This document shows positions 60,794-64,000 of a stretch of 64,000 nt of DNA, piece by piece. The stretch spans positions 188,527-252,526 of IMG/VR virus record IMGVR_UViG_3300033069_001378. The stretch is one strand, 5' to 3'. Numbering within the stretch: position 1 is the stretch's first letter; each line of letters opens with the position of its first letter. Both the position numbers and the translations under genes were made by a program. The notes beneath the pieces are model-generated. The model was given only the letters and a program-made list of their open reading frames with translations, did no database searches and had not been told where the DNA came from. The DNA comes from a virus. Its lineage: Duplodnaviria > Caudoviricetes.

Positions 60794-60824
60794 AAAAAGC
60801 CGACACGGAATCGTGTCGGCTTTT
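60794..60824 (-). terminator. intrinsic terminator of tRNA operon
   Basis: aaaagccgacacg-gaat-cgtgtcggctttt perfect hairpin. Confidence 0.85.
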
Positions 60825-60831
60825 CTTGTTT

Positions 60832-60854
60832 TGGAGCGGGTAGCGGGATTCGAA
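60832..60854 (-). repeat. displaced 3' fragment of tRNA-Gly (T54-U73 plus CCA); direct repeat of 61614-61633
   Basis: TTCGAATCCCGCTACCCGCT-CCA; 20-bp exact repeat. Confidence 0.95.
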
Positions 60855-61613
60855 AATGAAATTTGCATCATACTTAATTGTATGAAACCGCTTTTTACTG
60901 ATAGAGAATACCGCACAGCCAAATCTGGTGATATTTTACTGTGTGAATGTTATGTATGTCACTCGCACTTTGGCAAACAAAAAAGAGCGATTACAAAAGT
61001 TTACAACAAATCCGATTCAAACACTGGTCGATTCTGCTCTCAGAAATGCTTTGCGATATATAAGACCAAGCAATTTGCTACCAACTGCAAACAATGTAGT
61101 ACGCCAATTGTTAAAGCCGCGCGCGTAGCAAAAGACTCAAAGAGTGGAAACTTGTTCTGCTGTAGGTCTTGTAGTGTCACCTATAATAATAAAAACAAGA
61201 CTCATGGTACCAGAAGATCCAAGCTGGAAGCTTGGCTGGAATCGGAACTTGTAAGTTCATATCCAAACCTAGAGATTCACTTTAACAGGAAAGATACAAT
61301 CAACTCGGAACTTGATATCTTTATCCCTTCGCTTAAGCTGGCATTTGAGCTTAACGGTATTTTTCATTACGAGCCCATATTTGGCTCTGATAAGCTGACT
61401 CAAATTCAAAACAATGATTCTAGAAAATTTCAAGCTTGCTTAGCTGCAAGCATCGAATTTTGTATCATTGATACAAGTCAACAGAAATACTTTAAAGAGA
61501 AAAACTCTGCAAAATATTTGTCCATAATTCAGACAATTATAGACAATAAGTTGATTTTTAGCCGTGATAATCACGTTTCTAGTTCCGCCACGTAGAGGCA
61601 AATCAATGGAACC
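60855..61613 (+). mobile_element. endonuclease cassette inserted at tRNA-Gly 3' end
   Basis: 759 bp between 20-bp direct repeats; single ORF antisense to tRNA. Confidence 0.8.
60882..61595 (+). CDS. Zn-finger plus Vsr/DUF559-like PD-(D/E)XK endonuclease
   Basis: CxxC/FCSxxC repeats; SKLE, ELDIFIPSLKLAFELNGIFHY; start MKPLF at 60882. Confidence 0.8.
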   Translation: MKPLFTDREYRTAKSGDILLCECYVCHSHFGKQKRAITKVYNKSDSNTGRFCSQKCFAIYKTKQFATNCKQCSTPIVKAARVAKDSKSGNLFCCRSCSVTYNNKNKTHGTRRSKLEAWLESELVSSYPNLEIHFNRKDTINSELDIFIPSLKLAFELNGIFHYEPIFGSDKLTQIQNNDSRKFQACLAASIEFCIIDTSQQKYFKEKNSAKYLSIIQTIIDNKLIFSRDNHVSSSAT

Positions 61614-62091: not shown

Positions 62092-62737
62092 AATTCAGTT
62101 TCGATATATACTTATTGATATGCCTACCATATACACATTGCAATGTTCGTTTTGTTCTAAAGCTTTTCTACGAACTAAAAAAGATTTGAATAAATCAAAA
62201 AAACAAAATTCCAAAAATTCATACTGCACAAAATTATGCAAAAACTTGGCTTCTAACGCAAAAACAAAATATAAGTGTCATTTGTGCCAAAAAATGTTCG
62301 TTAGAAAAACGAGCTCGTCAAAAAACTCAAAATTAATTTTTTGCTCCAGGGCTTGCAATGCAAAGCATTATAACGCAAATAAACAATATGGAAACAGAAT
62401 TTCAAAGCTTGAAATTTGGTGCCAAAAAGAATTGGCAAAACAATACCAAAACTTAGAATTTCACTTCAATAGAAAAGACGCGATCAATTCAGAGCTTGAT
62501 ATCTACATTCCATCTCTCAAACTTGCGTTTGAGCTAAACGGGATTTTTCACTATGAACCTATATTTGGCAAATTGCAATTGAGCAAAATTCAAAACAATG
62601 ATTCTAGAAAATTTCAAGCTTGTATAGAGCGTAGTATTTCACTTTGCATTATCGACACATCATCTCAAAAATATTTTAAAGAAGCTTCATCTAAAAAATA
62701 TTTAGACATTATCACCAATTTAATTGATGAGAAATTC
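62092..62737 (+). mobile_element. endonuclease cassette inserted at tRNA-Ser(CGA) 3' end
   Basis: 646 bp, AT-rich, between direct repeats. Confidence 0.8.
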
Positions 62738-62752
62738 AGGAAGACAGACTAA
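62120..62752 (+). CDS. Zn-finger plus Vsr/DUF559-like PD-(D/E)XK endonuclease (paralog)
   Basis: 69/87 identical residues to the 60882 ORF in the catalytic domain; stop codon lies within the tRNA repeat. Confidence 0.8.
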   Translation: MPTIYTLQCSFCSKAFLRTKKDLNKSKKQNSKNSYCTKLCKNLASNAKTKYKCHLCQKMFVRKTSSSKNSKLIFCSRACNAKHYNANKQYGNRISKLEIWCQKELAKQYQNLEFHFNRKDAINSELDIYIPSLKLAFELNGIFHYEPIFGKLQLSKIQNNDSRKFQACIERSISLCIIDTSSQKYFKEASSKKYLDIITNLIDEKFRKTD

Positions 62753-62838: not shown

Positions 62839-62923
62839 TGGCGTTCCCGATAGGATTCGAACCTACATTAAGCTTTCGCTTTCCGCTTAGGAGGCGGGTG
62901 CCTGTCCGTTAGGCTACAAGAAC
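62839..62923 (-). tRNA. tRNA-Arg(CCT) with long variable arm
   Basis: CCGC-CTCCTAA-GCGG; extra AAGC-GAAA-GCTT hairpin; GCCA end. Confidence 0.88.
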
Positions 62924-62932
62924 ATAAAAAAT

Positions 62933-63006
62933 TGGCACCCATAATAGGACTCGAACCTACATCCCCCCGGTCGAAGCGGTTGCTCGTCCTTTTGAGCTAT
63001 ACGGGC
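62933..63006 (-). tRNA. tRNA-Arg(TCG), weak anticodon stem
   Basis: GCTC/GAGC D stem, CCG-CTTCGAC-CGG, GTAGG-TTCGAGT-CCTAT, GCCA. Confidence 0.7.
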
Positions 63007-63011
63007 ATAAT

Positions 63012-63086
63012 TGGCGGTTCATACAGGATTCGAACCTGTTCAAAGAGTTTCGTAGACTCTTATGCTATCCGTTACATCAATGAACC
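63012..63086 (-). tRNA. tRNA-Arg(ACG)
   Basis: AGAGT-CTACGAA-ACTCT; GGTTCAT/ATGAACC; GCCA. Confidence 0.95.
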
Positions 63087-63091
63087 ATAAT

Positions 63092-63164
63092 TGGAGGGGT
63101 GTATTAGAATCAAACTAATCTCAACCTGATTTGCAGTCAGATGCTCTCTCAGAGAGAACACCCC
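63092..63164 (-). tRNA. tRNA-Cys(GCA), non-canonical fold
   Basis: GGGGTGT/ACACCCC, CT-GCA-AA loop, U73-CCA; tiny D loop. Confidence 0.85.
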
Positions 63165-63171
63165 AAAAAAT

Positions 63172-63267
63172 TGGCAGAGAGCACAGGTTCCGACCCTGAT
63201 ACCTAGCCTTATGGTAGGCACAATCTGTTTAGCAAACAGTTCCGATCGCCATCACGGTTTACTCTCT
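63172..63267 (-). tRNA. tRNA-Ser(GCT)
   Basis: CTGT-TTGCTAA-ACAG, long variable arm, GCCA; T loop GTCGGAA. Confidence 0.85.
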
Positions 63268-63985
63268 ATAATATTTGAAATCACCCTTAAGATAATTTCT
63301 TAAATTCCACTGTATACCAAGAATATGATCTGTAACAATTCCATCTTGATACCTGATCGTTCTTCTCTTATCGCCTCTCATTCCGCTACCTACTTGGTTT
63401 TTCCTGTCCAACGATAGACTCTTGTTGTTCTTTTCGTTTTCTATGGAAACCAGCTTTGCTTTAAGCTGTTCGATAGCAGTCATCTTGTTTTGATACTGAG
63501 AGCGTCCGTTTTCGGATCTAACCGCAAGTCCTGTTGGGATATGCGTTACTTGCACAGCGGTTTCTGTTTTGTTTCTATGCTGACCGCCAGCACCAGAACC
63601 TCTGCATGTTTTGATCTCTAAATCTTTGGAGTATTCATTTAAGTCAGAATACGGTCCATTATCTTTTTCTTCTTGTCTTTCAGAGTCAGAAGCAAATACA
63701 GCTACAGTAATTGTGCTTGTATGAACCCTTCCTCTTTTCTCGGTTGGTGGCACTCTTTGTATTCTGTGACCACCGGACTCATTTCCAAATAACTCTTGCA
63801 AAAGAGCGTCTTTTCCTTTTACTTGAAAGACAATGAATCCTTCTGATTTCTCTGTGATTTCGATCTTAGTATCCGGGTCAAAGTCCGTGCAAAGCGCAAC
63901 GCTTGACATACATTCTGAATTGGTCTTCGACCAATAGCTTAGAATCCATTCCACCTTCTGCTGATCTAATCTCGATAATCATCAT
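63259..63985 (-). CDS. short class-I peptide chain release factor (PxT, GGQ), expressed via +1 frameshift, ~241 aa
   Basis: AGGAGA SD at 63993-63998; MMIIEIRSAEGG...RMY in frame 0 up to CTT TGA C; ESGGHRIQRVPPTEKRGRVHTS, GAGGQHRNKT, RSQYQNK in +1 frame. Confidence 0.9.
63877..63883 (-). promoter_or_regulatory. prfB-type +1 frameshift site CTT-TGA-C
   Basis: Codon 35 CTT, then in-frame TGA and C; +1 frame continues the RF domain. Confidence 0.8.
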
Positions 63986-64000
63986 TTTCCCGTCTCCTGT

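Follow-up and report, generated by a model that had tools for sequence, protein, structure and literature searches.

The question raised by the last gene of the window (the whole 64,000-nt stretch of DNA that was analysed) is how a release factor whose reading frame is broken by a stop codon could be made, and why the break is kept. The window is the final 64 kb of contig G000 (252,526 bp, 42% GC, linear, 66% complete according to CheckV), which holds one release factor gene and on which no terminal repeat was found. The original prediction described this gene as an RF1-type (PxT) factor gated by an RF2-type +1 frameshift at UGA. Its features were located as follows.

63994..63998, minus strand: Shine-Dalgarno (SD) sequence AGGAG of the true start (from the sequence)
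63878..63985, minus strand: ORF1, frame 0, 35 codons plus TGA, from ATG 63985 (Pfam PCRF and RF1 alignment)
63877..63883, minus strand: +1 shift site CTT TGA C, with CTT at 63883-63881 and TGA at 63880-63878 (sequence and homologues)
63259..63879, minus strand: ORF2, +1 frame, 206 codons plus TAA, encoding the rest of domain 2 and domains 3 and 4
63742..63750, minus strand: PPT recognition tripeptide (PxT-type), residues 79-81 (RF1 alignment)
63580..63588, minus strand: catalytic GGQ, residues 133-135 (RF1 alignment)
62839..63164, minus strand: co-oriented tRNA cluster directly 3' of the gene (three tRNA-Arg and one more), outside the switch

The true start had been missed by the ORF track, as the original prediction stated, and was confirmed as the AGGAG-led ATG of a 35-codon frame matching PCRF. 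This frame encodes the first strand and helix alpha-5 of RF domain 2, the E. coli RF1 counterpart of which begins at about residue 110, and its 3' end reads GGA CTT TGA C. Frame 0 matches Pfam PCRF positions 102-133, whereas the +1 frame matches PCRF positions 153-194 and RF-1 and, as predicted, supplies both PPT and GGQ from ORF2. When TGAC was read as one step, the frames joined into a 241-aa RF1-like protein without domain 1, of which residues 3-236 align with T. maritima RF1 (E 2e-47) and residues 3-225 with E. coli RF1 112-325; the match to RF2 was weaker (E about 1e-25).

The joined protein is a class-I bacterial-type release factor, with a GGQ domain 3 inside a PCRF codon-recognition domain. 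Like RF1, it carries PxT together with Q76, R77, H88 and T89, which are the equivalents of Q185, R186, H197 and T198 in the RF1 loop, but it has neither domain 1 nor the length of about 360 aa, its D14 aligns with the invariant Glu123, and its prfA profile score of 205 bits lies below the cut-off of 423 (TIGR00019). No SPF motif was present and the prfB score was 124 bits against a cut-off of 370 (TIGR00020), and only the GGQ region matched the PrfH profile (81 bits; cut-off of TIGR03072, 166.65). The heptamer itself is found in the window at chance frequency (19 found, 15.1 expected), and therefore the significance of the site rests on its frame, position and conservation. Neither a downstream stimulatory RNA structure (z 0.31) nor an internal SD sequence was found at the window's shift site, so that shifting may be inefficient in this lineage.

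The integrity of the site was examined in Logan contigs (contigs, not raw reads), and no indel was found in four runs from four studies; near-identical DNA was present in river, freshwater and wastewater metagenomes. Among the strain variants, 27 of 36 substitutions in ORF2 fell on third positions and the single substitution in ORF1 on a third position of frame 0. Relatives of 91% and 69% identity keep CAC GGA CTT TGA CCC. A 231-aa ORF from GTG 63954 does exist in the +1 frame, and truncated products of this kind are annotated in databases, as would be expected if ORF2 were translated alone. However, in the family described below the open stretch of the +1 frame extends as little as 3 codons above the site, 90 of 119 shifted members have no start codon of any kind within 12 codons upstream, and none has an ATG within 8 codons downstream; ORF2 alone would also be without the helix that reads the first base of the stop. 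On these comparative data, a pseudogene or an assembly error is refuted by conservation, the shift being shared by 119 members.

Truncation at the contig end was considered as a reason for the missing domain 1, as the window stops 15 nt above the ATG. It was ruled out by the 91% relative, in which the equivalent ATG is immediately preceded by a tRNA-Trp gene; the absence of domain 1, as originally predicted, is therefore real. Consistent with this, the frame above the start motif is usually closed within a few tens of codons in the homologues. A search for longer members that include domain 1 yielded identities of 41-48% at best; the 40 non-redundant matches examined were canonical RF1, which hints that such members are absent from the family.

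Homologous loci were collected by patterns in the PxT/GGQ region (56 and 80 viral loci, 80 genome loci), from which 148 distinct members, comprising 147 homologues and the window copy, were parsed by regular expressions, and about 40 loci were left unparsed. The best 120 protein-database matches were 162-231 aa in length and mostly lacked the ORF1 part. Gates were found in about 95% of the members: 119 have a +1 shift and 22 an early in-frame stop, and 7 are open. Large phages and bacterial assemblies, mostly of Myxococcota, carry the family, and 76 of the shifted members are viral or metagenomic and 43 lie in bacterial assemblies. Chromosomal copies were found in Minicystis rosea, Archangium, Nannocystis, Pyxidicoccus, Thiobacillus and Achromobacter, among others, and canonical RF1 and, mostly, RF2 are also present in the copy-bearing bacterial genomes checked; the setting is thus not confined to phages.

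The original prediction proposed a check for CTT-TGA in homologues, and CTT was found directly before the stop in all 119 shifted members. The stop is TGA in 86, TAG in 30 and TAA in 3, so that UGA, the predicted gate and that of the window copy, is not the only one in the family, in which a further 22 members have in-frame stops. C follows the stop in 97 of 119. The shift occurs at the window's codon in 110 members and at six further positions in the rest, and the consensus site is CGG AGG NGT CTT stop C. SD-like purines were detected in 91 of the 119, with GG[AG]GG at -11..-7 (the exact prfB spacing) in 63; the window lineage is among the 28 without an internal SD, and the predicted lack of a strong one accordingly describes the window copy and not the family. 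Across the site, the wobble-position entropy moves from frame 0 to frame +1, and the entropy of CTTT is zero (96 co-linear genes).

The 22 in-frame-stop members contain 25 TGA codons before codon 50, often at the conserved Trp of RF1, and nearly all of their gates are UGA. All 44 later Trp codons are TGG, a count partly forced by the parser, and nearly all of the proteins attain normal length. Reassignment of the genetic code (TGA=Trp, TAG=Gln) was tried as the reason for the internal stops and rejected for the sampled genomes, which use code 11. The coding coverage of G000 was 0.90, 0.83 and 0.88 under codes 11, 4 and 15, respectively, and in the sampled genomes neither code 4 nor code 15 brought a substantial gain and TGA serves as a gene end, as judged by a crude gene tiling with most genomes sampled at 20-80 kb. 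Since the later Trp codons are TGG and neither code brings a substantial gain, the in-frame stops are candidate readthrough gates. Two in-frame TGA codons within the first 50 codons, a doubled candidate readthrough gate, were observed in L028, L034, L039 and L172, and L276 (G079) alone has an in-frame TAG at the usual shift codon, with no gain under code 15, which makes it a candidate for amber readthrough. In Pararhizobium sp. BT-229 (G047:C3:960090-961802), a readthrough-type member is followed by two more partial RF-1 domains in tandem.

In the phylogenetic tree (186 rows, quick search, no bootstrap, unrooted), the family was set apart from canonical RF1 and RF2 by a branch with an SH-aLRT of 100. 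By motif and score the family is RF1-like and may derive from RF1, but the tree has no root and RF2 nests inside RF1. Six of the seven open members adjoin the RF1/RF2 branch, which suggests that the gates were gained later than the open state. The TAG label changes 22 times on the tree, at least 13 of these being forced by strongly supported branches, and the almost identical proteins of L131 and L134 have different gates (TGA and TAG, respectively). Gate type and position together showed 18 changes over 15 states. Shift sites of the CTT-stop type occupy 7 different codon positions and 22 more members carry in-frame stops; by sequence comparison, the stop gate is placed repeatedly in this family. 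The independent origin proposed for the window's prfB-type CTT TGA C site, which lies in domain 2 at a position not homologous to that of prfB, is supported.

To describe the stop-reading residues, the 148 members were compared with 50 canonical RF1 proteins. All 50 RF1 proteins have E123, T190 and H197. In the family, E123 is replaced by D in 144 of the 148 members, T190 is retained in 110 and replaced by N in 28, and H197 is retained in 96 and replaced by Q in 52. Q185 is present in 146 members and R186 in most, and the T198 position always holds T or S. No recognition residue was found to co-vary with the gate codon. Outside the loop, the residue encoded by the stop's own bases did so, and the distant column 165 was associated with the gate codon at p 4e-6, uncorrected for kinship. 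L218, L232 and L267 have lost the PxT part of their recognition loop and retain the stop gate. A neighbouring loop has 5 residues in 131 members, in contrast to 10-11 in RF1 and RF2, and may be the equivalent of the RF2 167-172 loop. Charge flips in the RF2 167-172 loop widen specificity to UAG and UGG (PMC7530605), and the shortened loop gives a weak hint of altered specificity. E123, T190 and H197 have been implicated in reading the second stop position, with T198 contacting the third, and the affinity of wild-type RF1 for UGA is 650-fold lower than that for UAA (PMC3974865). In the window copy, D14 and the short loop are combined with the retained T and H; E123D and the short loop, the only such signs in this copy, hint at an altered specificity.

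An alignment-based model of the open homologue P0072, built with RF1 sequences included, had a pLDDT of 90.6, the fold of RF1 domains 2-4 and a TM score of 0.86 to ribosome-bound RF1, while prediction from the single sequence reached a pLDDT of 44. In the model, residues 1-33 are predicted to form a strand and a helix corresponding to the part encoded by ORF1 in the window.

Taken together, we consider it somewhat probable that the gene product is an accessory factor that works independently of RF3, has a widened stop specificity and restricts its own production. A factor composed of RF domains 2-4 only would be a working class-I factor acting without RF3 recycling; domain 1 is required for RF3 stimulation and is dispensable for codon reading and release (PMC1586002). 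Translation would begin at ATG 63985 and meet CUU-UGA-C at codon 35/36, where efficient termination at UGA would leave a 35-aa peptide without a catalytic motif. If termination were slow, the P-site peptidyl-tRNA-Leu would re-pair from CUU to UUU, the next codon would be GAC (D36), and the 241-aa factor would be made. This factor would most likely terminate at UGA in addition to UAA and UAG, and so shut off its own synthesis. In a phage in which about two thirds of the genes end with TGA (161/241, ~67%), the factor would supplement the capacity for termination in the course of infection, and the gate would cap a factor that may be harmful in excess, for example through release at UGG. Broadened RF2 variants mis-terminate on UGG, which is costly without the frameshift (PMC7530605). 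The TGA share of 67% at 42% GC is also high in comparison with sampled relatives of similar GC.

Feedback is favoured by the repeated invention of a stop gate in a release factor gene, which negative feedback would predict, with prfB and the Mimivirus eRF1 as precedents. Furthermore, the prfB gate is always readable by its product, and the gate of this family moves while the loop is unchanged; if the same logic holds, the family would read all three stops under feedback. The wider claim, namely a natural bacterial-type factor that reads all three stops free of RF3 and has repeatedly evolved stop-codon autoregulation to cap its toxicity, is put forward tentatively, at rather less than an even chance. 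Against the reading as a self-limiting factor of broadened specificity, the window copy keeps an RF1-like loop (PPT, H, T), free exchange of the gate codon would also be expected for pure host sensing or attenuation, and 7 members are ungated. Of the two proposals made originally, autoregulation by a UGA-reading factor appears to fit the comparative data better than the sensing of low RF2 activity.

The latter proposal takes the factor to be RF1-specific (UAA/UAG), with the UGA gate reporting RF2 shortage or inactivation, or slow termination, in the host and no feedback; autoregulation would then be confined to the UAG- and UAA-gated relatives. The complete retention of PPT, Q, R, H and T of the RF1 loop in the window copy speaks for it, as does the prfA score of 205 bits, far above the 124 bits for prfB. 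The gate codon also loosely follows the stop usage of the phage: TAG-gated phages have a median TAG/(TAG+TGA) of 0.45, and TGA-gated ones a median of 0.29 (uncorrected p=0.003). With kinship taken into account, however, the trend was no longer significant (p about 0.5 on 5 independent pairs), and it does not discriminate between the models. Moreover, a factor blind to UGA would give no relief at UGA in a phage with 67% TGA-ended genes, both gates occur with the same recognition loop, and the chromosomal copies live beside the cell's own RF1 and RF2. Host sensing is thus regarded as unlikely, though it is the first of the alternatives.

A fixed attenuator, in which shifting or readthrough sets a low and roughly constant yield of a toxic factor and feedback is incidental, would account for the interchangeable stops, the several positions, the coexistence of frameshift and readthrough forms, and the SD-less variants. 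A weak start would be a simpler route to low expression, yet the ATG is led by AGGAG, and all solutions use a stop codon, with no stop-free slippery site in any of the 119 shifted members. We therefore consider fixed attenuation distinctly unlikely.

More doubtful still is a ribosome-rescue factor of little codon specificity (PrfH- or ArfB-like) that would free peptides from ribosomes stalled at damaged tRNA or rRNA, its gate being needed because the factor is active at any stop as well. The architecture without domain 1 is shared with PrfH, viral copies often lie inside tRNA arrays, and RNA-ligase- or Pth2-like neighbours were found by motif in a few loci. However, the scores are far below the cut-offs for PrfH (81/166.65 bits) and ArfB (35.5/100 bits), and the stop-reading loop is strongly conserved and RF1-like. 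No recurrent partner gene was found within 2.5-4 kb of the 148 loci (the upstream DNA of the window copy lies beyond the contig), and no RtcB operon was found for the family. Finally, an assembly error, a pseudogene or the translation of ORF2 alone is, given the checks above, almost certainly wrong.

Several observations concern the RNA genes around the family and in the window. An amber-suppressor-type tRNA (anticodon CTA) lies less than 3 kb from the release factor gene in L033, L037, L039 and L056, three of which have a CTT TAG C gate at a second site without an SD and show no gain under code 15. In the closest relatives (L117, L119 and L120), a tRNA-Trp(CCA) is located just above the gene; this is not general in the family, and would be of interest if the factor competes at UGG. 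Directly upstream of the Minicystis rosea copy (L123:6850-7830) is a gene matching phrog_24943 with a nucleotidyltransferase-like motif, which is not a conserved neighbour and hints at a phage origin of this copy. In the window, ARAGORN called 16 tRNAs. A sequence at 63095-63164 (-) was found by Rfam (39 bits) and missed by ARAGORN; its anticodon looks like GCA (Cys), and a tRNA-Cys occupies the equivalent place in the 69% relative. A tRNA-Ser(GCT)-like sequence with a CCA end was spotted by eye at 63171-63267 (-), without a call by ARAGORN or Rfam. Its acceptor stem starts within the final three codons of the release factor gene, the TAA of which lies inside the 5' stem, and this overlap may explain the short C-terminal extension of the window copy. 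Directly 3' of a tRNA-Gly, 61549-61612 (-) matches the HDV-like ribozyme RF02682 with 33 bits, below the gathering score of 44 bits, and is flanked by ORFs on the opposite strand at 60813-61595 and 62120-62752, the latter matching HNH/homing-endonuclease PHROGs. The comparison of GroEL for host assignment gave matches of 41-44% only, spread across phyla.

In a literature search with subscription journals mostly outside its scope, no published description of the family was found. The release-factor survey of Burroughs and Aravind makes no mention of phages or frameshifts, and release factors are not described in the jumbo-phage review. The family was missed because annotation truncates its members to fragments of 160-230 aa. 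Stop-gated expression of bacterial release factors was previously thought to be limited to RF2 and UGA/UAA: a programmed frameshift is reported for prfB and none is known in prfA, the prfB gate is always a codon that RF2 reads and was never TAG in 8,164 genomes (PMC12421855), and readthrough-gated bacterial release factors were stated to be unknown (PMC12421855, PMC5009743). The family breaks all three of these rules, having an RF1-like frameshift, TAG in a prfB-like motif and candidate readthrough gates. It offers natural material for testing determinants of stop specificity beyond PxT and SPF and the possibility of an omnipotent bacterial-type factor; if its members do read all three stops, they would offer a natural answer to why two release factors seem necessary in bacteria.

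Among the known systems, prfB, a precedent for a stop-gated release factor gene (PMC5009743), is among the closest. The family shares the slippery codon, the stop and the weak +4 C of SD-N3-CUU-UGA-C (PMC12421855, PMC5009743), the functional protein being in the +1 frame in both, and most relatives share the SD spacing, whereas the window copy has no internal SD. In contrast to prfB, the protein is RF1-like and not RF2, the site falls within domain 2, where a conserved Trp follows helix alpha-5 in RF1 (that of prfB is at codon 26, in domain 1), UAG is used in a quarter of the frameshifted members, and readthrough variants, of which none is known for RF2, are present. RF1 (prfA, TIGR00019) is the closest match in sequence and structure, with PxT, Q185, R186, T198 and GGQ in common, but the family lacks domain 1, has D for E123 and forms a clade separate from RF1 and RF2 (SH-aLRT 100). 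PrfH/RFH (PMC1586002, PMC9304027) is likewise a sporadic accessory class-I factor without domain 1; unlike the family, it recognises cleaved 16S rRNA, has no PxT and is paired with RtcB. The eRF1 of Mimivirus and Megavirus (R726/mg280; PMC3521657) is also a viral release factor gated by its own internal stops, with both types of recoding, but it is unrelated, with a eukaryotic-type fold and host, and in the family the two types occur in separate sampled members. The recoded Lak, Agate and Jade phages similarly encode RF1 or RF2 homologues, which are reported only together with a change of code and without a described frameshift (10.1101/2021.08.26.457843), whereas G000 and its sampled relatives use code 11, which would make them large phages that manage termination under the standard code.
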